Source of the DNA: Leptolyngbyaceae cyanobacterium
Lineage (GTDB): Bacteria > Cyanobacteriota > Cyanobacteriia > Phormidesmidales > Phormidesmidaceae
Direction of reading: 5' to 3'
Length of the DNA stretch: 64,000 bases
NCBI GenBank assembly: GCA_965263355.1
Contig: CBDHHL010000032.1
Coordinates: 2,560,001-2,624,000 of the forward strand
Within the stretch, counting starts at the first letter, position 1, and each line of letters begins with the position of its first letter. The notes beneath the pieces were generated by a model that did no database searches, was not told the origin of the DNA, and saw nothing but the letters and a program-made list of their open reading frames with translations. Positions 24,317 to 57,824 of this stretch are shown here, piece after piece. Made by a program: the position numbers and the translations under genes.

Positions 24317-24331
24317 ATTCTGTTCCAAATT

Positions 24332-27770: not shown

Positions 27771-27814
27771 GTCAGAAAGTATACTGATTCTTCAAATGCA
27801 GGTGGAGCTTAAAA

Positions 27815-28447
27815 GTGACTGATATGCCGATTCAACGTCTAATGCGACTCAGCGACATTATTTTCGCCGTAGCCATGACCATTCTGGCTATCTTCTTTGA
27901 TCCTATACCGCTGGATAACATCTCACCGGAAACAGCAGCTCAATTGCTTATACAGCAGTTACCGGATCTAGGAATTTATGCCCTGACGTTTATCACTCTG
28001 GCATTCTATTGGTTTACCCATGTGCATCAGTTCAAGCACTACCAAAGGACCGATGCGGTTCATACGTTCTTGACGCTGTTTTCCCTCTTATTTGTAGTGC
28101 TGTTTGCCTATGCCAGTGATCTCTCAGGAGCTTATGAGGGCGTATTTGCCATCAATCTGTTCTACAGCATGGCAGCGATAGGGGTGGGTATTTTTTCCAC
28201 TGCTGCGTGGATTTATGGCACTCAAAATCGACGGCTAGTGGCACCTGAGTTGTCCGACGAAACCATTCGCCACATTCGTCAAGAAAGCTATATTGAACCC
28301 AGTATTTATCTACTGGCAATTGGGACAGGTTGGCTGGTTTCCTGGGGATGGAGCATCACTGTGACATTAGGTTTTCCGATCGCTTTTCTGATTCAGACAA
28401 CGGTGTCTCGCCGCCAAACAGAAGAAACTAAAGTTGCCTTGGAGTAA
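27815..28447 (+). CDS. TMEM175 family (DUF1211) channel
   Basis: RLMRLSDIIFAVAMTIL (FSD-like), YWFTHVHQF. Confidence 0.88.
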   Translation: MTDMPIQRLMRLSDIIFAVAMTILAIFFDPIPLDNISPETAAQLLIQQLPDLGIYALTFITLAFYWFTHVHQFKHYQRTDAVHTFLTLFSLLFVVLFAYASDLSGAYEGVFAINLFYSMAAIGVGIFSTAAWIYGTQNRRLVAPELSDETIRHIRQESYIEPSIYLLAIGTGWLVSWGWSITVTLGFPIAFLIQTTVSRRQTEETKVALE

Positions 28448-28482
28448 TACCAGTTACTTATGATTAAAGGTGATTAGCTTGG

Positions 28483-28566
28483 AGCTAACAACTGCGCAGG
28501 AGCGGACGGATTGGAAATGCTTGATATTTGCCAAGATTCTGGCCGCCGCTCAGCTTCACGTTATGC
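28483..28566 (+). other. attC-like recombination site
   Basis: AGCTAAC..GCAGGAGCGGACGG...CCGCCGCTCAGC-ttcac-GTTATGC; two unpaired bases in the left arm. Confidence 0.85.
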
Positions 28567-28670
28567 GTGCGAAGTTTGAATAGACTGAACATTGGCCTAG
28601 CGTCATACAAGGCTATTTTATATTTGCTGCTTTAAGTAATCACGATACCAGTCTAAAGTGCGCTGAATTC

Positions 28671-40976: not shown

Positions 40977-41056
40977 CGTGAAGCTGAGCGGCGGCCAGGA
41001 ACTTTGGTATCATCATCTAAATTTTACCCTCCGTCTGTTCCTGCGCAGTGTTAGCT
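40977..41056 (-). other. attC-like site interrupted by IS copy 1
   Basis: Minus strand AGCTAAC..GCAGGAACAGACGG...CCGCCGCTCAGCTTCACG; the remaining TTAATC of the core is at 39497-39492. Confidence 0.85.
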
Positions 41057-41087
41057 GGTGTTCTCCACAAACCGTATCGTATTGATC

Positions 41088-41576
41088 TTAGGGCTCTTGG
41101 GCAAGGACTAAGATACGCTGATACAGCAGGGGACTGACACGAAAACCAGCTTGGTTGATCAAATCATCCATAATGGGTTGCACTTGGGGAATGAGGTTTC
41201 TTTGCTTGGCAACGAGCAAAATACCCAGAATACCGATTATGGATAGTCCAAGTTGAAGGGCTTGTTGCCGTCCCAAGCGCTCATCAATAAGCAGATCATC
41301 GGCTTGTAGCTCAAGTGCCAGCGCGATCGCACTCGCTTCTCCTGCATCCAGTCCTCGGTCTTGTTGTAATTGATTGGCAAGTTGAAGATTGCTAAGGGAT
41401 TGCGTTTGAATCCAGTCTAATTGCAGAATGCTTGAAATGGTTGGATTACTGGCGGTTGCGAGTTCGCTGGCAACAACGTCTGGAATAATTACGGTTTGGT
41501 AAATTGACTCTAGCAGCCAGAGATGATTGACAAGGGCAAGATTGCTGAGGGCAGAAGTATCGCTGACGACGATCAT
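41088..41576 (-). CDS. DUF3368 PIN-like toxin
   Basis: MIVVSDTSAL, LDAGEASAIALA, LLIDERLGR. Confidence 0.9.
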   Translation of the reverse strand: MIVVSDTSALSNLALVNHLWLLESIYQTVIIPDVVASELATASNPTISSILQLDWIQTQSLSNLQLANQLQQDRGLDAGEASAIALALELQADDLLIDERLGRQQALQLGLSIIGILGILLVAKQRNLIPQVQPIMDDLINQAGFRVSPLLYQRILVLAQEP

Positions 41577-41833
41577 AGCCAGCCCCGCTCGCGCAGGTGC
41601 TGAACATCTTGCTCAAGGTCTTCTACATCGTAGTGAACACAGATGCCCCGATCTGCCAGTAATTTCTGAAACGGGATGATTTCCATTCCAGCAATTTTGC
41701 TGGCGCGACTGAGGGAAATCAGCTCTTGTTGAAACAGTGCGATCGCAATTTCCCGAAACCAGTCGCTCTGATTAAAAGTTTCGGTTTGACTGAGATTATC
41801 AGGTAGGTTCAGAGTAATTTGCATAGGGTTCAC
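41573..41833 (-). CDS. UPF0175 family antitoxin
   Basis: EIAIALFQ..ISLSRASKIAG..F..LL..RGI..HYDVEDL. Confidence 0.9.
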   Translation of the reverse strand: MNPMQITLNLPDNLSQTETFNQSDWFREIAIALFQQELISLSRASKIAGMEIIPFQKLLADRGICVHYDVEDLEQDVQHLRERGWL

Positions 41834-41970
41834 CTGTAAATGGAAGCTCGTTGAGCCTACATTCTCAATTTTAACCTGTGCCTAACTTCAGTTGTGCCAT
41901 CGACTACATAACCCGCAGCAGGAATTATGCCAAATCTTCAAGTTATCACCTCAGCCGAATTCAAGGAGCT

Positions 41971-42052
41971 AGCTAACGAGGAACTGAGCGGCGGGCAATA
42001 CTTTTGCCTCTACCTGGACTTTAAATCCGTCCGCTCCTTCACAGAGTTAGAC
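41971..42052 (-). other. attC-like recombination site
   Basis: Minus GTCTAAC..GAAGGAGCGGACGG...CCGCCGCTCAGTTCCTC-GTTAGCT. Confidence 0.85.
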
Positions 42053-42076
42053 GGCAAGAGCGATCGCACCTCGCCT

Positions 42077-42760
42077 GTAGGTTGGGTTGAGTTAGCGAAA
42101 CCCAACAATATCAGAATATTCACCTAATCCCAATCCATCTTTTCCATCATTTTAATTTCTCCACCAGCACCCCAATCACTCGGATAATACCCCCGCTCAA
42201 CATACCCATGAAAACTTGAATACGATCAATCGCAGCACGGAGAGTCAACTAACTGGTGACTGACCGGATTATAGTGAATATAGTCAACATGTCGTGAAAA
42301 ATCTTTTTCATCGCGAATCTGATGCTCCCAAAATCGACGCTGCCAGATAGCTTGTTCTTTTTTCGTCTGGCGGCTTGATGACCGTTGTCGCTTGTAATGT
42401 GCTGGGCAATGTCAGCTGAAATACGTCTTAATCAATCGCCAACGGGTGGAAAAATCGGCATCTCCGTCGGGCAAGGTCCAGATGCAATGTAGATGGTCGG
42501 GTAGTACCACAATTGCGTCAATATTAAACGGATGACGTTGTTTGACGGTGTGGAAGGCTTCGCGCAGTAGTTGAATCGTTTGCTCAGTTTTGAAGAGGTG
42601 CTGGCGGTTGTAGGTGACTACGGTGAAGAAGTAGGTTGCACCGGGTGTGGTGGCGCGGCGGTATTGCATGGGGGTGGCCTATCGGGTGTAGGTTTAGGAT
42701 AGGCAGGATGAGGGCTAGGATAACTGTGGGTGTTGGGTTTCATGATTCAACCCAACCTAC
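42077..42760. mobile_element. REP-flanked RAYT unit, copy 1
   Basis: Inverted GTAG REPs at 42077-42107 (GTAGGTTGGGTTGAG..AACCCAACA) and 42731-42760. Confidence 0.85.
42124..42669 (-). pseudogene. REP-associated tyrosine transposase (RAYT), nonsense-disrupted
   Basis: YFFTVVT, VVLPDHLHCIW, then TGA at 42414-42412; frame resumes with WQRRFWEH..YIHYNP; a second stop later. Confidence 0.9.
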
Positions 42761-42798
42761 GGCGAGGTGCGATCGCTCTACGGCGAGGTGCGATCGCT

Positions 42799-42893
42799 CT
42801 GGTTAAACATTCCGAGGCTCACATCCCCTGAAAACTAACGGAAAGAGACAGTTGGGAGTCTCTTCGCCTCCTCTGAGCGATTTCGAGTCGCGC
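42799..42893 (-). mobile_element. 5' remnant of a group II intron
   Basis: About 95 bp similar to the intron 5' end at 56821-56916; starts GCGCGACTCGAA directly after GTTAGAC. Confidence 0.8.
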
Positions 42894-42930
42894 GTCTAAC
42901 AATATATTAGGCTTCTATTTAGTAGGTTCA

Positions 42931-43836
42931 TCATATTAAACCAAGGACACGACGCACGGCATTATCCAAATCCTCGCCTGAAGGAAGATTTACTCCAGTT
43001 ATAAATCGACGGGAGAATTCTTCTAATTCAAACTTAATTTCTCTCGAAAGAACAAGATGACGTTGTGATCCATGCTGAACTGGCTCAGATAATGAGTAAG
43101 TATGAACTGTCAAAACATCTGGTGCATTGGTATTCACAAGGGGAATATCAGTGCCAATGACATTCTCAAATTTTCTGTATACGATGTCTGGGAGTAAAAA
43201 GTACAAACCGCTTTTGACCAAAGTCGACCTTGAGTAAATCAGTCCTTTGCGTATCAACTGTGGGATTAAACGTTTATGCACATTGGCCCAGTTCATACCA
43301 TGTCCAGATTTTGGAATTAGCGTATCTGATGAGGTTAAGTTTTTGTAAGCATACCAGTTGTCACGATAGTTTCCAGTGATGTCAATGCTTTGAACTTCAA
43401 TACCTACATACTCGATAAGCTCTCCGTTATCAACTTTAGCTAATACCCAGTCCATGGATAGGCTCGTTCCCAATTTGACTTCCCTGCCTGATGTTTGCCC
43501 CAGAGCAACAATACACTCTGCGACTTCATTTCGACGAGGAATATATTCTTCATAGGTTAGAAACTCAAAGCCATCTCCAAATGCATCATGTACGACTCTT
43601 CTCAAGGAAGCATATCGACTTTCATACATTCGGTTAGGACAAATTATGCAGTCTCCATAAGGGGACGTGACGCTGCATGTTCCATAGGTAATAGTTTGAT
43701 CGTGATTTGTCTTAGTGCATGCTTTTTCAATAAATGGACATGCTCCCAACTTCCATAAACTTCGACTCACATCAGATAAATCATCTGGTGCATATCCAAA
43801 GATCTCAACAATATCTTTTCTGGGCCTTTGCACCAT
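42931..43836 (-). CDS. NotI-family restriction endonuclease
   Basis: EIFG..CPF...C.K....GTCSV....ICPNR Cys4 motif; MDWVL..GIEVQSIDITGNY; NWANVHKRLIPQL. Confidence 0.85.
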   Translation of the reverse strand: MVQRPRKDIVEIFGYAPDDLSDVSRSLWKLGACPFIEKACTKTNHDQTITYGTCSVTSPYGDCIICPNRMYESRYASLRRVVHDAFGDGFEFLTYEEYIPRRNEVAECIVALGQTSGREVKLGTSLSMDWVLAKVDNGELIEYVGIEVQSIDITGNYRDNWYAYKNLTSSDTLIPKSGHGMNWANVHKRLIPQLIRKGLIYSRSTLVKSGLYFLLPDIVYRKFENVIGTDIPLVNTNAPDVLTVHTYSLSEPVQHGSQRHLVLSREIKFELEEFSRRFITGVNLPSGEDLDNAVRRVLGLI

Positions 43837-43839
43837 TTT

Positions 43840-45003
43840 CTAGTTACCTATCATGATTTTTATGGATTCTCCAATGGCCTTTGCCATCAGTGGTGGAACC
43901 GCATTACCAACCTGTTCATACTGTTGAGTGACGCTTCCTGTGAATTTGTAGTGATCTGGAAAGGATTGGATACGAGCTGCTTCACGCACTGAAATTACTC
44001 GATCCTGTTCTGGATGGAAAAAGCTACCCCAATGTGGATCACATTTTGTTAAAACAGTTGAGCATAAGGATTCAGGGTGTAGTCTTCCGTAGCGTTTAGT
44101 GTGGTCACTACGTCGTGCCCTTTTCATCCCAGCAGGTAAGAGTTCATAGGGAATATCACGCCAGCTTCCGCCTTGTGGAATATGTTTTAATCTTTCCAAA
44201 TTTACTTTTCCTAAATTTGCACAACTATGATTCCAGACTTGATGTGAATCATGGCGTAAGTGAGCTTGATATTCATTCTGAGGAGCTTTTGCATAATCCA
44301 GAGCTTCGTTTCTACTTCCACTCTCGATAGATGGCAAATCAGAAATAGCCTCCCATACGGTTGTGTGTTGCTTTAGGGTCGAAGCAAAAAGCGGAGGAAT
44401 GTCAAAACACAACTCTTTTGCTCCTGCAAAGTTTGCAATAGCTCTAGCATTATACGTAGGCTTTGGAAATTCGATTTCTTTAGTATGTTGTCTAATACCA
44501 ATAAATATCGTCCTGAAACGCATTTGTGGCACACCATAATGTCCAGCGAACAAAATGCGATGTTTAACAACGTATCCCAATGATTGAAGCACCTTATAAA
44601 TTTGTTCAACTACTGTGCCTTTGCCAAGTTGGACAATCCCCGTAACATTTTCAATTAAGATTGCTTTAGGCTTTAAGACGGCAACTACTCGAAGAAAGTC
44701 TTTAAATAGATGATTGCGTTCATCATCAAGGCTTCTTACAGGTGCATTTACTGAAAAACCTTGACAAGGTGGCCCCCCAGCCAATAGATCCAACTCACCA
44801 ACCTTAAGATTAAGCTTTTGCTTCAAATCTAGCTCAAATACCTGACGAACATCGCTAACGATAACTTTGACACTGGGATGATTTTTTTGGTATGTCTCTG
44901 CGTACTGACCCACTATTTCATTAGCCAATATGGCTTGGAAACCAGCCATTTCCAACCCACACGATAAACCACCTGCACCAGCGAATAAATCAATAAACTT
45001 CAC
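43840..45003 (-). CDS. C5 DNA cytosine methyltransferase
   Basis: DLFAGAGG, GGPPCQGFS, IENV, GVPQ.R.R, REAARIQSFPD, QVGNAVPP. Confidence 0.97.
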   Translation of the reverse strand: MKFIDLFAGAGGLSCGLEMAGFQAILANEIVGQYAETYQKNHPSVKVIVSDVRQVFELDLKQKLNLKVGELDLLAGGPPCQGFSVNAPVRSLDDERNHLFKDFLRVVAVLKPKAILIENVTGIVQLGKGTVVEQIYKVLQSLGYVVKHRILFAGHYGVPQMRFRTIFIGIRQHTKEIEFPKPTYNARAIANFAGAKELCFDIPPLFASTLKQHTTVWEAISDLPSIESGSRNEALDYAKAPQNEYQAHLRHDSHQVWNHSCANLGKVNLERLKHIPQGGSWRDIPYELLPAGMKRARRSDHTKRYGRLHPESLCSTVLTKCDPHWGSFFHPEQDRVISVREAARIQSFPDHYKFTGSVTQQYEQVGNAVPPLMAKAIGESIKIMIGN

Positions 45004-45205
45004 GCAAATAATTTTAAAGCACCGATAGATTCTACCAAAATCAGTGAGCGATCCATTTGGCTTGAGTGAGTAAGATGAGGTCTTATGAGCCCAGTCTTGA
45101 GACAGGTTTTTAGAGCTACTGATTTAGAAGTGTCTCAAACCTCAAAAATTTGTACTCATAGCAAGATTGAAATTCATGCGGCTGGGTAACAGGGTGTTGT
45201 TGGTA

Positions 45206-45287
45206 GCCTAACTTTGAGCTGAGCGGCGGGCAATACTTTTGCCTCTACCTGGACTTTAAATCCGTCCGCTCCTTCACAGAGTTAGAC
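45206..45287 (-). other. attC-like recombination site
   Basis: Minus GTCTAAC...CCGCCGCTCAGCTCAAA-GTTAGGC; nearly identical to 41971-42052. Confidence 0.85.
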
Positions 45288-45311
45288 GGCAAGAGCGATC
45301 GCACCTCGCCT

Positions 45312-46102
45312 GTAGGTTGGGTTGAGTTAGCGAAACCCAACAATATCAGAGCGATCGCACCTCGCCTGTAGGTTGGGTTGAGTTAGCGAAACCCAACAAT
45401 ATCAGAATATTCACCTAATCCCAATCCATCTTTTCCATCATTTTAATTTCTCCACCAGCACCCCAATCACTCGGATAATACCCCCGCTCAACATACCCAT
45501 GAAAACTTGAATACGACCAATCGCACGGAGAGTCAACTAACTGGTGACTGACCGGATTATAGTGAATATAGTCAACATGTCGTGAAAAATCTTTTTCATC
45601 GCGAATCTGATGCTCCCAAAATCGACGCTGCCAGATAGCTTGTTCTTTTTTCGTCTGGCGGCTTGATGACCGTTGTCGCTTGTAATGTGCTGGGCAATGT
45701 CAGCTGAAATACGTCTTAATCAATCGCCAACGGGTGGAAAAATCGGCATCTCCGTCGGGCAAGGTCCAGATGCAATGTAGATGGTCGGGTAGTACCACAA
45801 TTGCGTCAATATTAAACGGATGACGTTGTTTGACGGTGTGGAAGGCTTCGCGCAGTAGTTGAATCGTTTGCTCAGTTTTGAAGAGGTGCTGGCGGTTGTA
45901 GGTGACTATGGTGAAGACGTAGGTTGCACCGGGTGTGGTGGCGCGGCGGTATTGCATGGGGGTGGCCTATCGGATGTAGGTTTAGGATAGGCAGGATGAG
46001 GGCTAGGATAACTGTGGGTGTTGGGTTTCATGATTCAACCCAACCTACGGCGAGGTGCGATCGCTCTGTGGGTGTTGGGTTTCATGATTCAACCCAACCT
46101 AC
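45312..46102. mobile_element. REP-flanked RAYT unit, copy 2 (REPs doubled)
   Basis: REPs at 45312-45342, 45368-45398, 46019-46048 and 46073-46102. Confidence 0.85.
45415..45957 (-). pseudogene. RAYT transposase, nonsense-disrupted
   Basis: Same TGA after KTYFS as copy 1; remainder of the frame intact. Confidence 0.9.
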
Positions 46103-46149
46103 GGCGAGGTGAGATCGCTCTCTAAAGATTGCTTAGAGTGCTCGTGTAT

Positions 46150-46173
46150 CGCCGTTGCAACACAGTGTTAGCT
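46150..46173 (-). other. half attC-like site (R''/L'' only)
   Basis: Minus AGCTAAC-actgt-GTTGCAACGGCG, like 20640-20663; right arm missing. Confidence 0.65.
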
Positions 46174-46190
46174 GGTTTGGGCAGACGCTA

Positions 46191-46721
46191 CTATGCAGCT
46201 AGCAAGCGACTCATTTGCTCTTTCAGTAATGGAGATACCGTCAAAGGCTTGTATGTTTCACCTTCGTAAGGCTGCCAAACATAGCCTGAACTAAACGCTC
46301 TAAATAAAGATGGTGAACCAAGTAACTGCCAAGTACCCTCAGATAAAACCAATCCTGGTATATTCAGGGTAGATGACTCATTTGATAATTCGTCAAACGT
46401 CCTGAATTCATCAACTTCAAGGCCGACTAAGGCATAGCGAAAGGTAGGAGCAGACTGCAAATATTGATAAAGCAGAATACCTACCTCTGTCATTAAGTAA
46501 GCTGAGTCTGGCGTTTCAATGCCGATTGTGCTTATGCCATCAGGACATATCCGACACCACCAGTTTTCATCAATGTCTTGAAAAATAGTGGGACGGCATT
46601 GAGATTGAGAACCATTTGATAGCGACCATGAAACAGCCTCAAAATGTTGAGCGAATTGAGCTGCTGTGATCTGGTCTGAGCCACATTCCGCCGATAGACT
46701 AAATACCCATGCCATCATCAA
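46191..46721 (-). CDS. hypothetical protein (candidate immunity/antitoxin)
   Basis: Overlaps the stop of the upstream ORF; acidic and aromatic composition. Confidence 0.65.
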   Translation of the reverse strand: MMMAWVFSLSAECGSDQITAAQFAQHFEAVSWSLSNGSQSQCRPTIFQDIDENWWCRICPDGISTIGIETPDSAYLMTEVGILLYQYLQSAPTFRYALVGLEVDEFRTFDELSNESSTLNIPGLVLSEGTWQLLGSPSLFRAFSSGYVWQPYEGETYKPLTVSPLLKEQMSRLLAA

Positions 46722-47163
46722 TCACCTTTTGCCAATAGTTCTGAGTTTTTGCTAATGCTGCCTCATACCGCTCTAGTAGCATTGTAACCCTTGGCATAAT
46801 GCTGACATGGGTAGCGCTGTCTTGGATGGCTTCTAAATCACCATCAATATATTTGCTGTCAATTTGCCATAAGGGATCTCGACCGGTTCCTCCGAAAGCC
46901 TTGGGTTTCCGAAAAGGTGGCAACCCCTCAATAGATAGCGATGTGGACATGCCTTTTGTAGTTCTGATAGCGACTTCCACCTGTAACCCTGAATCATCTC
47001 GTTTCGCCTCAGGATGCAAATAACCTTGAGCATCGAGCCAACCTTGCAGCATATGAGACACATCAATATCTACTCCAGGTCTAATTCCTAGAAGACGAGC
47101 GCTACGACCTAATTTTGGTTTGCCATCCGCTGCTGCCATACCTCGATAGTAAAGCCGTGCCAT
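46699..47163 (-). CDS. hypothetical protein, possible Tse2-like ADP-ribosyltransferase toxin
   Basis: YYRGM...KGMSTS...HVSIMP spacing recalls ART-fold toxins; family call is tentative. Confidence 0.55.
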   Translation of the reverse strand: MARLYYRGMAAADGKPKLGRSARLLGIRPGVDIDVSHMLQGWLDAQGYLHPEAKRDDSGLQVEVAIRTTKGMSTSLSIEGLPPFRKPKAFGGTGRDPLWQIDSKYIDGDLEAIQDSATHVSIMPRVTMLLERYEAALAKTQNYWQKVIDDGMGI

Positions 47164-47255
47164 CAGGTTATCGGAGATTCACTTCAGAGGTTATGCTAAA
47201 CCACTTGTGGCATACAAAAGGAATATATTAAGGCTTCTTGTATATCGATACTGAC

Positions 47256-47340
47256 AGCTAACGAGTAGCTGAGCGGCGGTCGGTATTTCTGTTTCAGTGC
47301 CTGGATTATAAATTCCGTCCGCTCCTGCGCAGGGTTAGCT
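47256..47340 (-). other. attC-like recombination site
   Basis: Minus AGCTAAC-cctgc-GCAGGAGCGGACGG...CCGCCGCTCAGC-tactc-GTTAGCT. Confidence 0.88.
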
Positions 47341-47347
47341 GGCTACA

Positions 47348-47695
47348 TCAAATGTAAAGAATTTGGTTTTCCATTTCATCTGCTGTAGTGCTGTCGAGAA
47401 TTGTAAGTAATCTACGCACGATTTCTGTATAGGGCCTTCTAACTGCAATGATAATTCCAGAATGAGATTTATTTGTATTAAAGTACTCTTGGGCAAGACT
47501 TTCAAAGTCAGTGCGATTGTGCGTTAAGATGGCCGCTCCAAGGCTAGTTGCAAATTCTAATTGCTCTGCATCCGATTTCCTACGCTGTCCGGCTTGTGTT
47601 GTTGTCGTTGCATTGAAACCACGAGAACGCAAAAGATTTGAAATTAGAACGTCAACGTCTTCGTCCAAATAAACGTGAATAAAAATACCACTCAT
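47348..47695 (-). CDS. DUF5615 PIN-like toxin
   Basis: YLDEDV..LRSRG..SDAEQLEFA..ILTHNRTDF..HSGII. Confidence 0.9.
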   Translation of the reverse strand: MSGIFIHVYLDEDVDVLISNLLRSRGFNATTTTQAGQRRKSDAEQLEFATSLGAAILTHNRTDFESLAQEYFNTNKSHSGIIIAVRRPYTEIVRRLLTILDSTTADEMENQILYI

Positions 47696-47699
47696 ACAG

Positions 47700-47981
47700 T
47701 CATAAGTTCCGCACTCGTGGGTCAATCAGCTCATCAGGAATACGATTTCGCTCAATGTATTCGTTGATTTCTGCTTGATGATCCAGATAATAGCTGAGTG
47801 CATCAAAAACCTGGGATAAACCGAGGTGTGGCAGTCTTTGGGGGATTTCCTCAGGTGAAACTCCAATACGCCACATTTTTACAATTGCTCTAACAGGCGT
47901 ACGAGTACCTTTAATAATAGGTTCACTGCTCAGTATTTCGTCATTTCTGACAATATGGCAGTGCTCTGTCGTTTGTACCAT
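47700..47981 (-). CDS. DUF433 antitoxin
   Basis: PIIKGTRTPV..G.SPEEI...PHL.LSQVFDALSYY. Confidence 0.92.
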   Translation of the reverse strand: MVQTTEHCHIVRNDEILSSEPIIKGTRTPVRAIVKMWRIGVSPEEIPQRLPHLGLSQVFDALSYYLDHQAEINEYIERNRIPDELIDPRVRNL

Positions 47982-48115
47982 ACTGATATTCCAGAGGGAT
48001 CAATAATATATAGAATCAGTTCTATTTTAGCTTGAAAGGAAATTTCCAAGCCGGTTCAATTTATTAGGGCTGAGTCGTTAGAAAATCATCAAAAACATAG
48101 GATAAATCGAGATGC

Positions 48116-48586
48116 TCAACTTCGAACACGCCTACGGACGGGAAGACGTGCATCCACATCAACTTCGTATGCAATGCACAATTCACGAATATTTTGACAA
48201 GCATCGATAGCCCAATTGACCCGCTCCGTAGCGTAGGTCAAACCACAACTACTAACCCCATGCACCAATCGATGTCGCAACCGAAATGCTTTCAAGAGCC
48301 CATCCCAATCTCTGACAACATCAGGTAAGCGTTGATTAACGTTTGGAAATACTTCTTCCTTCCACAGATTTTTGTAAGCTTTACATCCATGACAGCCATC
48401 TAGTTTAGCCCGAATGTCCACATTGGGAGATGTTCCAAGTGCAATAATTGAACGACGAACAGTCCACTCAAAATGGATTACTGAGAGTAATGCTGATAGT
48501 GATGGGTCTTCAGCCAACAATTTTTGAATTCGTTGCTCTCTCGCTGAGCTAGAATCTTTCACTAAAAACATTAGTTTTTCTTTCAA
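48116..48586 (-). CDS. hypothetical protein with HEPN-like RxxxxH motif
   Basis: Helical protein with FEWTVR and RHRLVHG; start probably ATG 48571. Confidence 0.6.
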   Translation of the reverse strand: MKEKLMFLVKDSSSAREQRIQKLLAEDPSLSALLSVIHFEWTVRRSIIALGTSPNVDIRAKLDGCHGCKAYKNLWKEEVFPNVNQRLPDVVRDWDGLLKAFRLRHRLVHGVSSCGLTYATERVNWAIDACQNIRELCIAYEVDVDARLPVRRRVRS

Positions 48587-48637
48587 GAACCGCTCTTAAC
48601 AATGATAATCCGGTTCTCATAGCAAGTTGCCAGCTAA

Positions 48638-50093
48638 AGAATCTATGCAAGCCGTGAGAGGCTATAGAATCCAGCTATCCCCTCTTATACTTGGAGAAAC
48701 GTTATGAAGATTCTAGCGATTGACCTGGGCAAAGTCAACTGTGTACGTGTCTGCTGGACACGGAAAGTAACGCGACTGAATTTGATACGTTTAAGACGTA
48801 CCGACGGGAATTTAAAGAAATATTACATCTTACTCAACCCCACTTGGTAGTAGTGGAAACATGTTCGATTACCGGATGGGTGCATGATCTGTGTGTTGCT
48901 GAAGACTATCAAGTACTGGTGGCCGATCCCAGTCAGGAGGCGTGGCGTTGGAAAAACGTCAAACGCAAAACGGATAAAGACGATGCACTGAAGTTAGCAA
49001 AACTGGCGGCTCTCGAGCAGATCAACCCAGTGTACGTGCCTGCACCAGAGACTCGACAATATCGGCACTTGGTGAAGTATCGAAAAGTGGTGGTTTGGCG
49101 TATCAATCGGGTTCAAAATGCGATTCGTGCGTTGTTTGATCAACACGGGGTGAAAATACCATCAGGTCACCGAGCCTGGACCATCCAGGGGATTGACGAA
49201 TTAAGCCAACACCGCCGAGTGCTGGCGGAGTGCGATGAGCACAATCTATGGCGTGGGGAATTAGAGTTAGAATTAACGATGCTGGACCAACTATGGGAGC
49301 ACCTGGCAACCATTGAACGGAAATTAGAAATACTCGCAAAGCAGGAGGAGCGCATCCAACTATTGCAGACCATTCCTGGGGTTGGTCGTAAAACAGCCGA
49401 AGTGATTGTCACTTGTTTGGATGATCCGAAGCGATTTGAAAATTCGCGGCAAGTGTGTGCCTATGCTGGATTAATACCCCAACAACATCAATCCGGACAA
49501 ACCAATCGCTTGGGTAAGATTACTAAACGGGGACCAAGATTACTCCGAACGGCATTAGTGGAAGTGTCCTGGCTGATGTTGCGTCACAACGAATGGGCGG
49601 CAGCTACTTATGCACGCATTAGTGGAGGACAGAAGACCCGCAAGAAAACAGCGATTGTAGCCGTTGCCCGGAAGTTGTTGGTGCGATGTTGGGCAATGTT
49701 GTTACACAACCAGCCGTGGAATCCAGAGTTAGCTCAGCCAACAACATAGATAACAATATCTAGAAGAGAGAATGAAGAGAACAAAGTGAGACTCTAGCAT
49801 GAGCTTGAAGCTCCACGTAATCTGAAACAAGGTTGCTCTAACGAATAAGCCATGCACCTTTGTAAAAACTCTTGAGACAATGCAGTAGAACACACGTTCA
49901 AATAGCATTGACACCTCGGATAGTCGGTTAAATCCACTTTGCCCTCATTAATTCTCAATCAAAAAGACAGTCCTAAGAACAAAGGTAAATCATCTTGACT
50001 AACAACAAGATGAGAGATTGATGTGGATAGAAAATGAGAGACTCTCCGAAAAAATATGCCGAAACCCACTTGACACGTTCACGGCTTCATAGT
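48638..50093 (+). mobile_element. IS110-family (IS1111-like) element, copy 2, inserted in attC
   Basis: Near-identical to 39498-40976; flanks AGCTAA^CGGGGAGCTG rebuild an attC core. Confidence 0.92.
48704..49749 (+). pseudogene. IS110 transposase, frameshifted
   Basis: 1-bp deletion near 48745 (GTGTACGTG vs GTGTATCGTG in copy 1). Confidence 0.88.
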
Positions 50094-50172
50094 CGGGGAG
50101 CTGAGCGGCGGTCAATACTTTTGCATTGACGCCTAAATGGTAAATTCCGTCCGCTCCTGCGTAGGGTTAGGC
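50094..50172 (-). other. attC-like site interrupted by IS copy 2
   Basis: Minus GCCTAAC-cctac-GCAGGAGCGGACGG...CCGCCGCTCAGCTCCCCG; TTAGCT continues at 48637-48632. Confidence 0.88.
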
Positions 50173-50549
50173 AGCAGGGCCAGGGGCATTATCCGCTGCC
50201 TTGAGGAATTAATTTATGAGCATGGTGCGGTCCTAAAAATGTATCGATAGGGCATTGGGCGTTGCAGCAGGGGCCGCACCCTACAGCTTGCTATGGGAAA
50301 CTGATTAATGGATTAAATTTTTCAATCAAACTCATAAAAACTCCTCCACATCAAGCATTGGGTGTGACCTGAATTTAATGTGGTTCAAATGATCTACAAT
50401 ATGTATACTCCTTTGAGCCTAGCTTTGAGAATAATTCGATGTCTCGGGTTGCTATTCTGAGCCCTGCCTCAAAAGTTCACATCGTTTTTCGTTTACGCTA
50501 AGAACTATATAGAGTAGGCGATCTAAGCGAAAAATGGTAGACATCATAT

Positions 50550-52343
50550 TTAGGTCACACCCCAAGCATTTTGTGTGTCTGACAACAAACTACCTGCAAC
50601 TTTTGTTGGAATAAGCGTAGGATAAAAAACCATTTGAAAGGAATTTTTGATCAGCTCAACCAGTTGCTTGTCAGCTATTGATAAATTCTTAAATTCTTTT
50701 GCAGACAGTTGCAAACCATGTGCGTGTAAGAATTCAACTAATTTATCGACTTCAAAAGTGAATTCATTTGCTAAGCTTAAATACTGAGTAAAATAAAAAC
50801 CTATCATTCCTAAGGTTATACCTCTTATTAAATCAGTTGTTGAACTATTTTTACGCTCTGCAAGGCGGGTCAATTGTTCTGATATGCTATCTAGCTTTTT
50901 CTTGATCTCAGAATTTTGCAGGGACAGTTCGATAATTCCATCCTTTAATTCATCACTTAAGCAGTATACTTCTTCAATATCCTTTTTTCTCGCTAATTCG
51001 TGATACTTTCGGTTTATTCTCATAGAGAGCAATTCGCTCGCTATATCCTCATTAACAAAGTACATAGCCTTTTCATCACGCCAATTATTGCCGTCCAATG
51101 CGTGAAATTGAATGAAATAAGGAAGATCTTTGAAAGAAATCTCAACTGGAACACAAAATGTCCATCCATTAAATGGTTCTGCCATCGGCTTATAGGCTAT
51201 TTTGTCGGTTTCAAGGCAAAGTTTCTGTGCATATTTAACCGCATGGACAGGTGACTTATTAGAAAAGCCAACATAAATATGTTCTTCAAACAATTGATTG
51301 ATCAGCTTGGCTTTATTTTCCTGTTTAACAATTAATACCTCTGCATCAATAAGTGGAGTCTCTGTTTGAAGGGCTAGGATTTCAGTAGTTAATTTTGCAA
51401 GACTCACATTATCAATAGTGACATGGGTCGCGACAGCTACGTATGAAGGAATTCTAGGTGCATTTCTTCCAAGTATTCTGTTGAAGAAGGTTATTTTAGA
51501 ATTGGTAGTGACCTTTGATAACTTTGACTCAACTATTTGCTTGACTTCTTCTTTTTCAATGTCAAGATTATTTCTATTTACTATTATTGGATTATTGTTA
51601 TTGAACTTGATATGTTTGGGTATGTCCACGTCTGAAGGGATTTCAGCCAGCCATGCCTTACCAACTCTTGCTGGAAGAGTACTAAGACACTGTTGAGATT
51701 TCTCCCATCTACTATTTAATTGTGCAATAGAATTTAAAGAAACTAAGAGTGGAATGTCAGGCCATTGTGCTAGAAGTTTACTAGCTTTAAGCGTTTTAAG
51801 TTGTTCTATAGTTTTTCCTGCTTGCTCTTTAGCCTCACTAGCCCATTTCGAATTAGCAAATGTTCTATTGATATTAATGATTTCTGAAACACCTTTTGCT
51901 CCTAGTGCAGCTATAAATCCAATAGGACCTGTAGTAAAAAGTAGTCCAGCAGCAAAGACTGCACCAGAAACATTAGCCACTATTGCTTGGTCAGCAGTAT
52001 TTTTCTGAGAATCTAGAGCTTCTACAGTAGGATGATAATTACCCAACTTTGCCACTTGCTGAGAGAGACTCCCAGATTTAAGCCTAGAACGAATGTTGCC
52101 AAACATGTTGAACTGATGTACTATAGCTCCTCCTATTAAAGCAACCCATCGCTTAGACTCACCTAATCCATTTTGAATTGTTTGAAGCGCCGTAATAAGT
52201 TGGTCAAGATCCTGGTAAGTAACAGCTTCATGTAGCCCACTTTCCTTAAGTTGTTGCAAAATGCCAACAACTTCTTTGTCCTGAAACTCTTTTATTAACA
52301 ACTGTTCAATTTTATTTGACTTAGCTACAGCCTCTAAGCTCAT
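50550..52343 (-). CDS. hypothetical protein (cassette gene; coiled coils and hydrophobic hairpin)
   Basis: 597-aa AT-rich ORF alone between two attC-like sites. Confidence 0.8.
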   Translation of the reverse strand: MSLEAVAKSNKIEQLLIKEFQDKEVVGILQQLKESGLHEAVTYQDLDQLITALQTIQNGLGESKRWVALIGGAIVHQFNMFGNIRSRLKSGSLSQQVAKLGNYHPTVEALDSQKNTADQAIVANVSGAVFAAGLLFTTGPIGFIAALGAKGVSEIININRTFANSKWASEAKEQAGKTIEQLKTLKASKLLAQWPDIPLLVSLNSIAQLNSRWEKSQQCLSTLPARVGKAWLAEIPSDVDIPKHIKFNNNNPIIVNRNNLDIEKEEVKQIVESKLSKVTTNSKITFFNRILGRNAPRIPSYVAVATHVTIDNVSLAKLTTEILALQTETPLIDAEVLIVKQENKAKLINQLFEEHIYVGFSNKSPVHAVKYAQKLCLETDKIAYKPMAEPFNGWTFCVPVEISFKDLPYFIQFHALDGNNWRDEKAMYFVNEDIASELLSMRINRKYHELARKKDIEEVYCLSDELKDGIIELSLQNSEIKKKLDSISEQLTRLAERKNSSTTDLIRGITLGMIGFYFTQYLSLANEFTFEVDKLVEFLHAHGLQLSAKEFKNLSIADKQLVELIKNSFQMVFYPTLIPTKVAGSLLSDTQNAWGVT

Positions 52344-52579
52344 TATCCCAAGATCCCCAATAAAAGAATAGAAATTGAGTAGACGGTATCCTAATCAAAT
52401 GACCAATTTTGACTTCTAAAAAGTTAAACCCTAAAGAAATAGTTCCTCTCATTTGAAGACAAACTTGTGACAGATACCTTGGAGTTCAATTCAAGTCTAA
52501 GATCGAATCCTACGAAAAATCTTTATAGAACTTAATATTTTTGTTTTAAGCTTGGAGAGATTAATACTCAAAATTGTCT

Positions 52580-52665
52580 GTCTAACGTTGCTGTTCAGCG
52601 GCTGGCAACAAAATATAACTCCTTCCAATAACTCATGTCAGTCCGCTGAAACAGACTTGTTAGGC
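52580..52665 (-). other. attC-like recombination site
   Basis: Minus GCCTAAC-aagtct-GTTTCAGCGGACTGACA...TGCCAGCCGCTGAAC-agcaac-GTTAGAC. Confidence 0.88.
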
Positions 52666-52682
52666 TAAAGTGTCGATCTAAG

Positions 52683-53789
52683 CTATGGTGCTCCTCTTCG
52701 CCCTTCGTTTCTTCCAAATTCCAAATAGTGTGCAATTGCCCCCATGTAATTATTTGCTCCATAGACATTAGCTACATCAGGATTATTTGATAAATAAAAA
52801 CGCGGATCAAACTCAGATGAGCCTTGACGCCCTTCAGACACACCGTGTCTTAACCAATGATCTACAGCTGCAGAATAGTTCGTTGAGCCAAAAGCTCGTT
52901 GCAAATCAGAATACTTACCTAAGTAATATCTGACATCAAATACAATAGAGCTTCTTCGCCCTTCAGACACACCGTGTCTTAACCAATGATCTACAGCTGC
53001 AGAATAGTTCGTTGAGCCAAAAGCTCGTTGCAAATCAGCATGCTGACCTAAATAATATCCAACATCAAATGCAGGAGAACTTCTTCGCCCTTCTCCAACA
53101 CCGTGCCTTAACCAATGATTTCTAGCAGCATCAAGATCATTTCCAAAAGCATTCCTTAGATCACCATAAGTCATGAGATAGAACTCAGGCTCAAGAACAG
53201 GTGAGCTTGAAGATTGAGATGCTGTAGATGATGGATTACCTACAACATTTCTTCCAATTCGGACATACATTTGATACGTGTTTGGAGTAGGTACACAAAT
53301 TCCAAACTCACATTCAGTTCTATTATATGTAGCTCTTCCTACTTGCATCTCTATACCTGAAATAGATAAGCCAACTCGTTTACCATCAAAAGAAGCATCC
53401 ATCGATTCCAAAAAACGAGTCAGTGTTAATACATTTGCAAGCTCGTCTGCAATATCTGGAGCCTTCCTCCTCACTTCTGCATCTAAATCTCGAAGCGCTC
53501 TACGCCCAAAGTTTGCAAGATAAACTGAAGTGAAACCACCGCTTCCACCACTAAAGTCTGCTGCCAATGCAGCAGCAAGTTTCAACATTTCTTGATGACT
53601 AAATTCTGTTGTGTAAAGAACAACATAGCCATCTTCCAAACTGCTTCTAACTTCTGGTTTATTTGTGCGATGTGCTGCATACGCTATTTGGGGGGAAGAA
53701 ATGATTCCAGCTGCAGACACACTACAAGAGACCAATACTAATGATAGAAACCTCTTAACACTTGGTTTTATACTCAAAGTTGAAAACAT
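52683..53789 (-). CDS. secreted protein with C-terminal ~41-aa tandem repeats
   Basis: Signal peptide; four units FDxxYYLxxxxDLxxAFG..HWLRHGxxEGR. Confidence 0.8.
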   Translation of the reverse strand: MFSTLSIKPSVKRFLSLVLVSCSVSAAGIISSPQIAYAAHRTNKPEVRSSLEDGYVVLYTTEFSHQEMLKLAAALAADFSGGSGGFTSVYLANFGRRALRDLDAEVRRKAPDIADELANVLTLTRFLESMDASFDGKRVGLSISGIEMQVGRATYNRTECEFGICVPTPNTYQMYVRIGRNVVGNPSSTASQSSSSPVLEPEFYLMTYGDLRNAFGNDLDAARNHWLRHGVGEGRRSSPAFDVGYYLGQHADLQRAFGSTNYSAAVDHWLRHGVSEGRRSSIVFDVRYYLGKYSDLQRAFGSTNYSAAVDHWLRHGVSEGRQGSSEFDPRFYLSNNPDVANVYGANNYMGAIAHYLEFGRNEGRRGAP

Positions 53790-53884
53790 ACAAGGCCTCC
53801 AAGATTATCAGAAAAATAAGTAGTTGACCATCGCTATCTGTTGTAAATCTAGCTAGAGGTTGCATTGGTTTTCATTGACTTGGG

Positions 53885-54466
53885 TTAAGAACCCTTTCTT
53901 TGGTAGATTCGTCTCTTCAAACGGCTAAGGGACTCTGGCTTAATCCCAAGATATGAGGCTAAATGATAATTAGAAACTCGATCAATGATTTCAGGCTCAC
54001 TGTTAAAGAGCTTACAGTAACGTTCTTCAGGGGTATCCATATAGAGAGAAGTTAATTTGTCCCGCATCTTGGAGGCAAATCCTTCAGCGTGAAGCCTCAA
54101 AAATTTCTGACCGTTTGGAATCTCTTCGATAAATTTCATCGCTCGATGATTAAACAAGAGAATCTTAGAGTTCTCGATCGCTTCACAAGAAAATTGAGAA
54201 GGCTCTTGATTTAGAAAACTCCTGTAATCACCAAAGCTTTCGTGCTCGAGATGAAAGGAAAGGGTACACTCTCGGTCATCATTAAATAGAAAAATTCTGA
54301 CACAACCTTCTAGAGTAAAGCCAATAAATTTGCAGATATCTCCTTCCTGGAACAGAAAGTCACCCTTTTTAACTTCTACACACTCTAGGAATGAATCAAA
54401 AAGTGTAGGGTCAATTTTGAATTCGGGAAAGACTTTCAGAACAAATGTATAAAATGGCTCATACAT
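53885..54466 (-). CDS. Crp/Fnr family regulator (cNMP-binding)
   Basis: KKGDFLFQEG..GCVR; PEERY..YHLASYLGIKPESLSRLK. Confidence 0.9.
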   Translation of the reverse strand: MYEPFYTFVLKVFPEFKIDPTLFDSFLECVEVKKGDFLFQEGDICKFIGFTLEGCVRIFLFNDDRECTLSFHLEHESFGDYRSFLNQEPSQFSCEAIENSKILLFNHRAMKFIEEIPNGQKFLRLHAEGFASKMRDKLTSLYMDTPEERYCKLFNSEPEIIDRVSNYHLASYLGIKPESLSRLKRRIYQRKGS

Positions 54467-54555
54467 CTATCTGCACCTCTAATTTTTTTACGTCGACTTA
54501 GCCAATATAAATCAATGAGTAATGCTGATTAATCGTCTCACTGGAAAAGTTAGCG

Positions 54556-56916
54556 GTCGGGTAAAGGGATAGGTTTTACATATAGCCTCCCCCCTCCCCT
54601 CAGAACCGTGCGTACAACTTTCACTGTACACGGCTCAAGCAACGTCGATAGCTCAGCGATGCATTTGTTGATGGCAGACTCGGTGGAGTGCCATCAGATT
54701 GGACGCATGATTCGTCCCACCTAGGTGACGTGGCTGCTTGTGATGAATGTGGATGGGCTCTCCATTGAATAGGGATTGCCCACACAATAGACATTGCCCT
54801 TGTTGCCAGCGGATAATCCGCTGAGCAGATTTGGGATAATCCCCCAGGTGCCTGGACTGTTTGCCCCGTAGAGCAAAATACCCCTGACACTCTGGGTCAT
54901 CTGGGCTAGCCTGCCCTCGAATGAGGACATGCCGTCGAATCCGGGTAGAGCCGATGCGATAAAGCACCATGCCTGTATTGGGGTCGATAAAACACCATCG
55001 GCACCCTGGATAAGCGGGATGCTCTCCCCAGTATCGTCCCTTTCGCCACGTATAGGACTTGTTGGGATGGGTTTTCGTTGCCCAGCGTTGGAGTTTCCAG
55101 AAGAGATAAGTTTCTAGTTTCTGGAAAACCTTTGAGCTGACCACGCCTCGATAGTAATTGGCCCATCCCCGCAAGATGGGGTTGAGCACCGTGATTACTG
55201 CCGTTGCATTACAGCCATGAAGCCGCTTAAACGTGTGCCGTAGTTTCTCACGAAATCTAGCCACACTTTGCTTGGCAGGTCTGATCAGCAGCTTCCACCC
55301 CGTCTGGGTGTTGCGGCTTGGGTAGTGACGAACCATGAACCCCAGAAAATCAAATCCTTCCGATAGATGCACCACCTGAGTTTTCTCATCAGATAGCTGC
55401 AGTCCTCTCAAGCTGAGGAAACGTTGAAGGTCGATTCGGGTTTGGTCTGCTTCTGCTTTGCTCTCACAAAAGACAACAAAGTCATCGGCATATCGCACCA
55501 CTGCCCGTGTTACATTCTTTTTGATATAGCCTTGGGCATATCGAGTAATGCCCAGTGCCGCTTCCATGCCATGTAGTGCAATATTCGCTAACAGCGGTGA
55601 GATGACACCACCTTGGGGCGTGCCAGCATCAGTCGAATGAAAGACGCCATCTTCTAGGTAGCCTGCCCTGAGCCAGTCGGCAATTAATCCACGAGCGGGA
55701 AAGTTACCAATCTGGCGGAGTAGGAACCGATGATTGATGGCGTCAAAACATCCAGCAATATCGGCATCGACCACCCACTTTTTGCGATTCTTTGCATGAG
55801 CATTGACATAGATACGAGCAATGGCATCATGGGCGCTGCGACCGGGTCTAAACCCATAACTGGTTGGCTCAAATTGAGCTTCCCAGCACGGTTCTAACGC
55901 CGCTTTGACCATCGCTTGTAAACATCGGTCCGTAATCGTGGGAATTCCCAAAGGACGACGTTTACCATTACTCTTCGGAATGTACACCCGTCTGACTGCC
56001 AAGGGTTTCCAAGGAATCGTTTGCTTCAGCTGATCCACTAGGGCTGCTTTAGCGGGGCCTGTTTTCACAAGCACCTTATCGATTCCTGGAGTGGCCTTGC
56101 CAGCGTTCAGTTGAGTCACCCGTCGTACCGCTAGCAGTACATTTGAGTAACTCTTGAGTAGTAATCGTTGGAGATTCCTGACTCGCTTCCAATCATGCTG
56201 TCGCGTCGCTCGGAAGATGCGTTGTCTCAGATTCTTCACCACTCGATGGGCTTTGCGCCAGTTGGCATCCTGCCAATCGGTGATGCGCTGGGTTACGTTT
56301 GCAACACAAGTCTGCACCTAACTTTTTCCTCAGCGTTTAGTCTCGTCTCAACGTCTCTTACTGGACCTCACCTGTCCCACGTCTGCGCCCTTTCGGGTTA
56401 GGCATTTGCCCTATCCGTCACGTTATGAATTCCGTTTGCCTTTCGGCGGACGGCTTTCGCGTCTTGGGACATCCTGTTCCCGCTAGAGACTTCGGCTTCC
56501 GTTACCGTCGGCTTACCTGAAAATGAAAATTCCCAGGACTCTATCGGGGTTTCCTCGTTCCGCACGGGGAGGAGATATGATTGCCTTAGGACTCCTCTGT
56601 ACTCCGGGAGCGGGGTGTTCTCAGTTGGTATTTAGACGCTACCAACTCCCATCTGCTCCAAAATTCTCGTATCAGCCATTTCGAGAACTCTAAATTAACG
56701 AAGCCTCATCAAGGATTCACTTGCGTTATCCTTAGCAATCTTGCCCTAGCCTGCACCCTCTTGTTGGCTCAGAAGATGCTTCGACAGTTAACCTCGTCTG
56801 CTGATGCTGCCCTCCCATTACTGGTTGAACATTCCGAGGCGGACATCCGCCTGAACACTGGCGGGGAGAGACGTTTGGGAGTCTCTCCAACTCCCCCGAA
56901 CGACTTCGAGTCGCGC
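54556..56916 (-). mobile_element. group II intron (chloroplast-like class, IIB-type), full length
   Basis: 5' GCGCGACTCG; domain V GAGCCGTGTACAGTGAAAGTTGTACGCACGGTTC (54636-54603); domain VI ending ACCCGAC. Confidence 0.93.
54653..56317 (-). CDS. ltrA: group II intron reverse transcriptase/maturase with HNH endonuclease
   Basis: RVT_N-type N-terminus (LQRLL..AVRRVT.LNAGK.TPGID), RPLGIP, GTPQGG, RYADDF, RGWANYY, C-terminal CxxC and HNH. Confidence 0.96.
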   Translation of the reverse strand: MQTCVANVTQRITDWQDANWRKAHRVVKNLRQRIFRATRQHDWKRVRNLQRLLLKSYSNVLLAVRRVTQLNAGKATPGIDKVLVKTGPAKAALVDQLKQTIPWKPLAVRRVYIPKSNGKRRPLGIPTITDRCLQAMVKAALEPCWEAQFEPTSYGFRPGRSAHDAIARIYVNAHAKNRKKWVVDADIAGCFDAINHRFLLRQIGNFPARGLIADWLRAGYLEDGVFHSTDAGTPQGGVISPLLANIALHGMEAALGITRYAQGYIKKNVTRAVVRYADDFVVFCESKAEADQTRIDLQRFLSLRGLQLSDEKTQVVHLSEGFDFLGFMVRHYPSRNTQTGWKLLIRPAKQSVARFREKLRHTFKRLHGCNATAVITVLNPILRGWANYYRGVVSSKVFQKLETYLFWKLQRWATKTHPNKSYTWRKGRYWGEHPAYPGCRWCFIDPNTGMVLYRIGSTRIRRHVLIRGQASPDDPECQGYFALRGKQSRHLGDYPKSAQRIIRWQQGQCLLCGQSLFNGEPIHIHHKQPRHLGGTNHASNLMALHRVCHQQMHR

Positions 56917-57068
56917 GCTAACTATGAGTTATCCAGACTTAGTCTGGATAAATACCTTCCAGCCGGAGTTATCCAGAAACTTTCTGGATAAACACCTTAT
57001 AAGCAATTAACCCAGAAACTTTCTGGATAATACCCCCAGAGTCGGAGTTATCCAGAAAGCTTTAACCT
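56917..57068 (-). other. array-head element with attI-like simple site (copy 2)
   Basis: Palindromes starting near 56928, 56968, 57007 and 57047; minus strand ends GGATAAC-tcata-GTTAGC followed by the intron. Confidence 0.6.
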
Positions 57069-57518
57069 CGCTTTAATAGTTCAAATAAACTATTGAGCCA
57101 TCTACCAAGACTGATCGTGAGTGTGATGCCTTAGGGGGGCGCTAAGACTATCCTTGTTCGATGGGGTCAATATCTACCGTTTTTGACGGTTAAACCAGTG
57201 AAATGAGCATTTTTCCGGCCAGAAGCATCTCCTCAGTGCCTTGATAACAGCGTGATACAGCCCATTGCTAGCTTGACGAAAGCCTAACCCCCGGTCTAAA
57301 GTAACCCAATGCTGCAAGTGCAGCTGTTCTACTAGAACCTAATAACTTGGCACCATCGGCAGGTGCTGACAACACCTAACCGATGGCTGACCCGCGGATT
57401 CCAGAGCAATCCTTGGGATGGGCTTATTATGCCTCAGCCCCTGCGATTTGCCATACATCGCGGGGGCTGAGCTGTTGGGTTCTGGCTTTCCTTGTCGTTT
57501 CTCTGGAGAACCAGAACC

Positions 57519-57758
57519 ATGTTTCAAGACCCAACCCAGGGCGCATCAGCGCTCACCCGTCAGCCTGACCCGCTGCCAGAATCCTCCTACGAAATGGGAC
57601 GACATCTGCTGCTGGGCAGTTTGACCTTTGTGCAGACCACCATCAAGCTGTTGCATAAGCTCAACTATACTGAGCCCAACGACTGGAGTCGTCCACTACC
57701 CACCGGGCGACCCAATGAGGTGATGGCGATTTTGACTAAAAAAGTGAAGATTAGTTAG
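57519..57758 (+). CDS. small conserved cyanobacterial hypothetical protein
   Basis: RHLLLGS...TIKLLHKLNY.EPNDWS.PLPTGRPNEVMAILTK pattern. Confidence 0.7.
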   Translation: MFQDPTQGASALTRQPDPLPESSYEMGRHLLLGSLTFVQTTIKLLHKLNYTEPNDWSRPLPTGRPNEVMAILTKKVKIS

Positions 57759-57763
57759 GGCGA

Positions 57764-57824
57764 TGCGATCGCATCCTGTCCAAAGAGGGTGCGATCGCAT
57801 CCTGTCCAAAGAGGGTGCGATCGC
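57764..57824. repeat. 26-bp tandem repeat bounded by three HIP1 sites
   Basis: (TGCGATCGCATCCTGTCCAAAGAGGG)x2 followed by TGCGATCGC. Confidence 0.9.

Follow-up and report, generated by a model that had tools for sequence, protein, structure and literature searches.

A putative attI with phased accessory boxes and frequent integrase-less copies in cyanobacterial chromosomal integrons

Organization of the element in the window

The DNA analyzed here is a 64-kb stretch from a Leptolyngbyaceae cyanobacterium (contig CBDHHL010000032.1, positions 2,560,001 to 2,624,000; hereafter the window), in which the same non-coding element is found twice, as copy A on the plus strand and copy B on the minus strand. 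Each copy heads an array of attC sites on its own strand, and the element is very probably the attachment site (attI) of a cyanobacterial chromosomal integron. The two copies and the insertion found within one of them are as follows:

18611 to 18864, plus strand: attI copy A, with the architecture of copy B and the crossover G at 18858, broken by a small insert
18684 to 18775, no strand assigned: 92-bp insert resembling a miniature inverted-repeat transposable element (MITE), with terminal inverted repeats of 18 bp (imperfect), located in the middle one of copy A's long spacers
56916 to 57065, minus strand: attI copy B, with R box at 56916-56922, crossover G at 56922, a 5-bp spacer and L box at 56928-56934

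Both copies terminate in a 7-bp L box, a 5-bp spacer and GTT, and upstream of this simple site copy B has six accessory boxes of alternating orientation. The 9-bp boxes start at 56929, 56943, 56969, 56983, 57008, 57022 and 57048 in copy B and at 18622, 18648, 18662, 18789, 18803, 18829 and 18843 in copy A; relative to the crossover G, the starts in both copies are -134, -108, -94, -69, -55, -29 and -15, with alternating orientation. The preliminary description of this DNA, which was made from the sequence alone, had placed a shared element with an attI-like terminal simple site at the head of both arrays, which agrees with both copies, and had counted about four palindromes at a period of ~40 bp. 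The period is confirmed at 40/39/40 bp, while the count is corrected to three full palindromes (two exact and one with 2 mismatches) and one lone distal half per copy, i.e., seven boxes. A search of the window for the palindrome pattern with at most 3 mismatches returned 6 matches, all within copies A and B, compared with a mean of 0.06 in shuffled windows (0 of 100 shuffles reached 6). As the element opens with an inward-facing box, three accessory pairs facing inward, together with the simple site, describe it better than outward palindromes do.

Without the insert, copies A and B are identical in 140 of 154 alignment columns; the extra length of copy A is due to the 92-bp insert and its 10-bp target duplication (18674-18683 and 18776-18785). 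An end resembling this insert is also found at the equivalent attI spacer position in genome G050 (L255, near 4730), which suggests that the MITE-like insert may prefer the attI spacer as a target.

Association with intI, the crossover point and attC sites

Homologues of the element in G003 and G004, which are 89% identical to copy B, are located ~100 bp upstream of an intact, divergently transcribed intI, whose products match TIGR02249 with 472-473 bits (cut-off 265). G035 is the third genome in which the element adjoins an intact intI. Among 28 copies chosen as reaching the end of the site, TAGTT is invariant (28/28), and past TAG/TT, where the slash marks the crossover point, identity drops from 100% to mostly 0.2-0.5, or about background; the 20-mers after the crossover are all different. 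Judged from these alignments, cassettes join at G/TT of the terminal simple site.

The orientation of the downstream arrays was followed with an attC covariance model, which was built from the eight attC sites of the window and therefore misses divergent attC sites and scores those eight in a circular way. The model gave 30 matches in 37 flanking loci, 29 of them at E ≤ 0.01; the remaining one, at E 0.81, was discarded as the antisense of a counted match. All 29 counted matches are downstream of the element and on its strand, as are 12 of 13 in a second locus set, and matches are present at 18 of the 32 cyanobacterial copies searched. The attI-type identity, the multiple copies and the variable downstream cassettes that the preliminary description had proposed are thus borne out, and its question of whether any copy abuts an integrase gene is answered by G003, G004 and G035.

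Scanning the genome collection for two consecutive relaxed palindromes, with GTT not required, identified 17 loci, of which 13 are cyanobacterial and four come from other phyla; the nearest named matches of the window are Leptothoe genomes. The element had no match in plasmids by blastn, and the viral scan found one lone palindrome only, which was taken as chance. Locus L008 of Thiomargarita was excluded from the counts: it is a 40-bp tandem repeat without a GTT end, in an assembly without intI. Given its position beside intact intI genes, the element is best assigned as the cognate attI of the Leptothoe-clade integron and would not be intrinsically integrase-independent.

Periodicity and box register among integrons

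Periodicity upstream of intI was scored by autocorrelation over 300 bp at a threshold of z 3, using loci from the best-scoring part of each search (e.g., 30 loci from 61 Pseudomonadota genomes) and leaving out 7 of 106 loci for short flanks. At lags 39-41, 21 of 29 cyanobacterial loci are above z 3, and the peak lag is 39-42 in 29/29; the lags scored were broadened to 39-42 after the data had been seen. With this range, a period at z >3 is found in 31 of 32 loci of this cyanobacterial order, in 3 of 67 loci of other phyla (Chloroflexota, 1/15; Pseudomonadota, 0/26; Acidobacteriota, 2/26) and in 0/19 and 2/30 of two sets of cyanobacterial controls. In a phylum-wide sample of 18 new loci, 7 of 10 whose integron integrase (IntI) shares 64% or more identity with the query are periodic, as is none of the eight more distant ones. 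Clinical integrons are not periodic (class 1, z 0.4; class 3, z -0.3; a third clinical integron, z 0.2).

Relative to the crossover G, the TAA boxes are found at -9, -49/-51, -90/-93 and -131/-135 and the TTA boxes at -29/-30, -69/-72 and -108/-114, that is, one box per 20-21 bp in alternating orientation. Box sequences differ by integrase lineage while the register to the crossover stays fixed, and the aligned loci show a box register constant across the cyanobacterial integrase lineages compared. At the fixed offsets, the first two accessory boxes have T, T and A at 69-81% (26 loci), as does the R box core, in keeping with the earlier proposal that the palindrome halves resemble integrase boxes. 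The period was also considered as a trait of one IntI clade, which is not supported, as a FastTree tree places the periodic cyanobacterial loci in two separate clades; its deep nodes are weakly supported, and the architecture may have had one origin or more.

Related arrangements occur elsewhere. Shorter versions in the same register are present in several Chloroflexota loci and L085, and eight loci of Bipolaricaulota, Chloroflexota and Acidobacteriota (L006, L009, L011, L085, L116, L122, L125 and L126) have the same box register and a GTT end, some without a visible intI. The integron on a plasmid of Kovacikia minuta (L208; NZ_CP083584.1, 32024-32986) is complete and its attI is periodic (z 3.5), which points to a possible route for integrases into genomes with orphan sites. 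In a dfrA1 integron of Proteus (L207; NZ_OL790812.1), which is not annotated as such but which we take to be of the SXT type, at least three back-to-back palindromic boxes with irregular spacing are found upstream of the crossover.

Copies without intI

Among the 29 copies with at least 1.1 kb of distal flank, which were drawn from a hand-selected set of 34 distinct tabulated copies (one source scan scored four candidates per genome), intI is intact in three, frameshifted in one, reduced to a 22-codon stub in two and without detectable remnant in 23. No IntI match is found anywhere in the window. The earlier view of a stand-alone site uncoupled from intI thus holds for 23 of 29 copies and fails for the element as a whole, which adjoins an intact intI in three genomes and intI stubs elsewhere. 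Since the intI-deletion breakpoints differ in L287, L247, L249, L032 and L027, the removal of intI by a directed, site-specific excision was rejected. One 5-bp microhomology deletion of intI is common to L017 and L187, so their platform was duplicated after losing intI. For these and other copies the breakpoints show solo copies to be integron platforms that lost intI by deletion, and the same origin is probable for the rest.

In copy B, the intI-less module is ~870 bp long and has its far end at a hairpin past a small multi-copy open reading frame (ORF). Its distal part is as follows:

57066 to 57824, plus strand: leftover intI leader, ~250 bp of non-coding DNA, hairpin-rich leader, 79-aa ORF and HIP1-containing hairpin, with no intI remnant found

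The 79-aa ORF (57519-57758, in the 57330-57824 region) is accompanied by a conserved hairpin-rich leader and the HIP1 hairpin; the octamer that we take to be HIP1 occurs 31 times in the window. Homologues of the ORF number 2-84 per genome in five genomes and are often located just downstream of intI, and neither Pfam nor PHROGs gave a name for it. The subfamily at ≥93% was rejected as a constant attI marker: L252 has the module without attI, and L253 stops at a contig edge.

Nine module copies share one intI-less junction and were aligned after exclusion of three more rows (two duplicates and one shortened site). Their accessory boxes are 95.5% identical, compared with 68.5-74.6% for the spacers and 72-77% for the adjacent non-coding DNA; GTT is 100% identical and the following 30 bases are 29% identical. 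The three long spacers remain distinct from one another, and the first cassette is different in each of the nine. Likewise, copy B and L016 have common flanking DNA past the module, yet diverge directly after G/TT. The conserved boxes together with the distinct first cassettes suggest that these intI-less copies are used in trans.

Genomes may contain many such sites. On the 7.69-Mb contig of G050, which has an attI of another lineage and where 1.5 kb of flank was inspected per place, nine places match the contig's own attI: one with an intact intI, one with a decayed intI, five without intI and with GTT intact, and two damaged. A third attI lineage is multi-copy in all five genomes searched, and boxes of several lineages are found together in one genome in G050, G005 and G035.

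Proposed function and alternative explanations

We propose that the element is an attI with phased accessory IntI-binding sites whose solo copies are served in trans, an explanation that we consider probable as a whole. The cognate IntI quite likely binds the boxes, as far as their likeness and fixed register can tell, the upstream boxes acting as accessory binding sites. A step of 20-21 bp corresponds to two helical turns, so that bound IntI monomers would lie along one face of the DNA, and with accessory pairs spaced by 15 bp instead of 5 bp no cleavage would be expected there. The accessory boxes may load the integrase and favor attI × attC insertion over attI × attI exchange, as may DR1 and DR2 of attI1, which have been proposed to favor cassette capture over attI × attI exchange (PMC8946536). 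Such a filter would matter where one genome holds many attI copies. Solo platforms would have arisen by deletion of intI, with some duplicated later, and would capture cassettes when a compatible IntI arrives in trans; that they are usable in this way when such an IntI is supplied seems to us somewhat better than an even bet. More speculatively, and with clearly less confidence, filamentous cyanobacteria may have a distributed integron: many scattered attI sites would be served by a single intI or by one that is imported from time to time, a box-bound IntI filament would permit capture and block attI × attI exchange, intI-less modules would themselves spread to new loci by copying, and one group II intron lineage would have specialized on these attI sites.

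Several observations weigh against this proposal. Of the 27 assemblies with the element, many of which may be incomplete, just four contain a near-full-length cognate IntI (≥88% identity), and IntIs have been described as strictly specific for their own attI (PMC2095811). Sites cut to 1.5-2.5 units keep distinct cassettes (L028, L196, L227, L235 and L236), and therefore the full box array is not essential. Both window copies carry insertions, L252 lacks attI beside its module, and 14 of the 32 copies searched have no match to the attC model, which misses divergent attC sites. The occurrence of the period in two separate IntI clades, in a tree with weak deep nodes, would also suit a host protein, and the many copies of the small ORF could have allowed the intI-less junction to form repeatedly, in which case the argument from turnover would lose weight.

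The strongest alternative, which we hold to be possible and still the less likely account, is that the solo copies are dead relics: the attI identity would hold, the first cassettes would have been gained before intI was lost, and the boxes would be inherited or kept by gene conversion. The 23 of 27 assemblies without near-full-length cognate IntI, the varying deletion breakpoints, a crossover damaged at 3 of 10 places in G050, the insertions in both window copies and the small ORF, with up to 84 copies per genome between which recombination could repeatedly recreate the intI-less junction, all agree with it. It is at odds with boxes that are far better conserved than spacers in nine copies with a common intI-less junction, with long spacers that stay distinct beside nine different first cassettes, and with copy B and L016, which share flanks past the module and differ right after G/TT.

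It is unlikely, in our estimate, that the boxes instead have no role in synapsis and serve either as operators for a host protein (a regulator or a nucleoid protein) or for autorepression by IntI at the promoters of the integrase gene and the cassettes. Regulator sites are known in the attI regions of other integrons (PMC8876359). In the cyanobacterial loci, the box array occupies the whole interval from the intI start to the crossover, and the period is found in two separate IntI clades, with few cases in other phyla. One box differs from the DnaA box consensus at a single position. DnaA boxes as such were rejected: the window has no exact match to that consensus, and boxes of other lineages use other sequences. 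Operators would hardly vary in sequence with the IntI lineage while being locked in register to the crossover, coexist as several lineages' boxes in one genome (G050, G005 and G035), or form a series to which the L box itself belongs; moreover, a scan for sigma-70-like promoters, including a cassette promoter (Pc), gave only three weak matches versus 0.7 expected, two of them directed toward the array. That the element is a MITE, a repetitive extragenic palindromic (REP)-like repeat or a transposon end lying before the arrays by chance is highly improbable despite its multiple copies, palindromes and strong single-stranded fold (z -7.5), given that its boundary is the G/TT crossover, that it occupies the attI position of intact integrons with downstream attC sites always on its strand, and that its ends, in alignments judged by eye, are unlike terminal inverted repeats, one being the crossover and the other merging into the intI leader.

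Cassette arrays and mobile elements in the window

The two arrays and the elements associated with array B are as follows:

18865 to 28569, plus strand: cassette array A, with a DUF6236 gene, a PIN-domain toxin-antitoxin pair and a 7.8-kb block
20636-20726 and 28480-28569, plus strand: two clear attC sites of array A, in addition to a degenerate attC start near 19958
40975 to 54555, minus strand: cassette array B, with toxin-antitoxin, restriction-modification and unknown genes
52577-52669, 50092-50176, 47253-47344, 45203-45291, 41968-42056 and 40975-41060, minus strand: six attC sites of array B
42827 to 42912, minus strand: bare attI-like simple site within array B, of the form TAA-N6-GTT, with a 5' remnant of copy B's group II intron after it
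54556 to 56916, minus strand: group II intron with a reverse transcriptase-maturase-HNH ORF (54653-56317), inserted at the R box end of copy B in cassette orientation

Integron-linked introns described in PMC7923331 target attC. At eight cyanobacterial places, which involve several attI lineages, the intron lineage of copy B starts directly behind the R box of an attI-type simple site and is oriented like the cassettes; judging from these positions, it is possibly an attI-homing intron. The intron-bearing attI-type sites are:

Window 56916 and 42893; L196; L218; L004:3273; L090; L104; L265

IS110-family elements at 39499-40976 and 48639-50093 are inserted exactly between G and TT of the attC sites at 40975-41060 and 50092-50176, and one is found at the equivalent attC position in L251:437-1893. 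A truncated Y1 transposase gene flanked by REP-like repeats is present twice in array B, beside an attC in each case (42057-42810 and 45292-46122). One cassette gene of this array matches a Tse2-like ADP-ribosyltransferase in Pfam and is followed by an unnamed gene (46699-47163), the two being possibly a toxin-immunity pair. The 7.8-kb block of array A (20727-28479), which encodes a TetR protein, two rubber-oxygenase-like proteins, an SDR, an amine oxidase and a TMEM175-like protein, may be one giant cassette between two attC sites; the stop codon of the TetR gene overlaps the end of the upstream attC.

Comparison with known systems

In the literature within reach of our search, which stopped short of most subscription journals, supplements and the attI figure of an archaeal paper, neither a periodic attI nor dispersed solo attI sites of cyanobacteria are described. 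The earlier statement that the element is not a described one is therefore retained for its architecture and withdrawn for its class: by its sequence, the element is a member of the attI class with a new architecture and frequent integrase-less copies. As attI has been treated as short, non-palindromic and unsearchable outside the clinical classes, only attC has served to define integrase-less arrays. With a fixed, phased architecture, attI can be detected across a large cyanobacterial group, where many integrase-less arrays retain a complete entry site and where a single genome may have many distinct points of gene capture. Two questions become testable: the function of the accessory IntI sites, and whether arrays without an integrase are still active in capture.

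A crossover site combined with non-cleaved accessory sites at fixed spacing is also found in the res sites of the Tn3 family and the cer and psi sites of Xer recombination, in which different recombinases or accessory proteins are involved, so that the likeness is an analogy only. The closer counterpart is attI1 of class 1 integrons, the sequence of which was taken from a plasmid record. Like the element, attI1 is upstream of a divergent intI and has an L box, a 5-bp spacer and G/TT, and the TTA of its first direct repeat (DR1) at -31 has nearly the same place and orientation as the TTA of the first accessory box at -29/-30. IntI1 binds L, R, DR1 and DR2 (PMC12901181). Unlike the element, attI1 is 65 bp long with two direct repeats (DR2 at -50) and has no 39-42-bp period (z 0.4), whereas the element has six accessory boxes spanning ~135 bp, the second of them inverted, and other lineages have more, the alternating arrays covering 130-250 bp overall; the element thus does not have the attI1-type arrangement of DR1 and DR2 within 65 bp. 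attI has been described as devoid of palindromic sequence (PMC2095811), and attIA of V. cholerae as without repeats (PMC8946536). Further integron literature includes bioRxiv 10.1101/2022.02.06.479319, PMC4909258, PMC10609294 and bioRxiv 10.1101/2025.06.18.660453.

With six attC sites in array B, two in array A and no intI in the window, both arrays have the defining features of attC clusters that have no integron integrase (CALINs; two or more attC sites without a neighboring intI), for which intI loss has been put forward as one origin (Cury et al., 2016; PMC4889954). The same paper defines CALINs without attI and describes attI as unknown for most integrons. In a CALIN of the Shewanella prophage M16-3, an attI also heads an array without adjacent intI (Qi et al., 2023; PMC9892861); this is a single case with a short attI, and the accessible part of that paper mentions no phased boxes or chromosomal dispersal. 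The delta-attI-type cassettes of class 1 and 2 integrons, which carry attI away from intI and are still recombined by IntI1, have a truncated attI that replaces attC inside an array (PMC12901181), a group to which the bare site at 42894-42912 may belong, whereas the element is a whole attI that heads its array. Unlike CALINs as defined by Cury et al., the arrays of the window are each headed by a complete, recognizable attI, of which there are several per genome.
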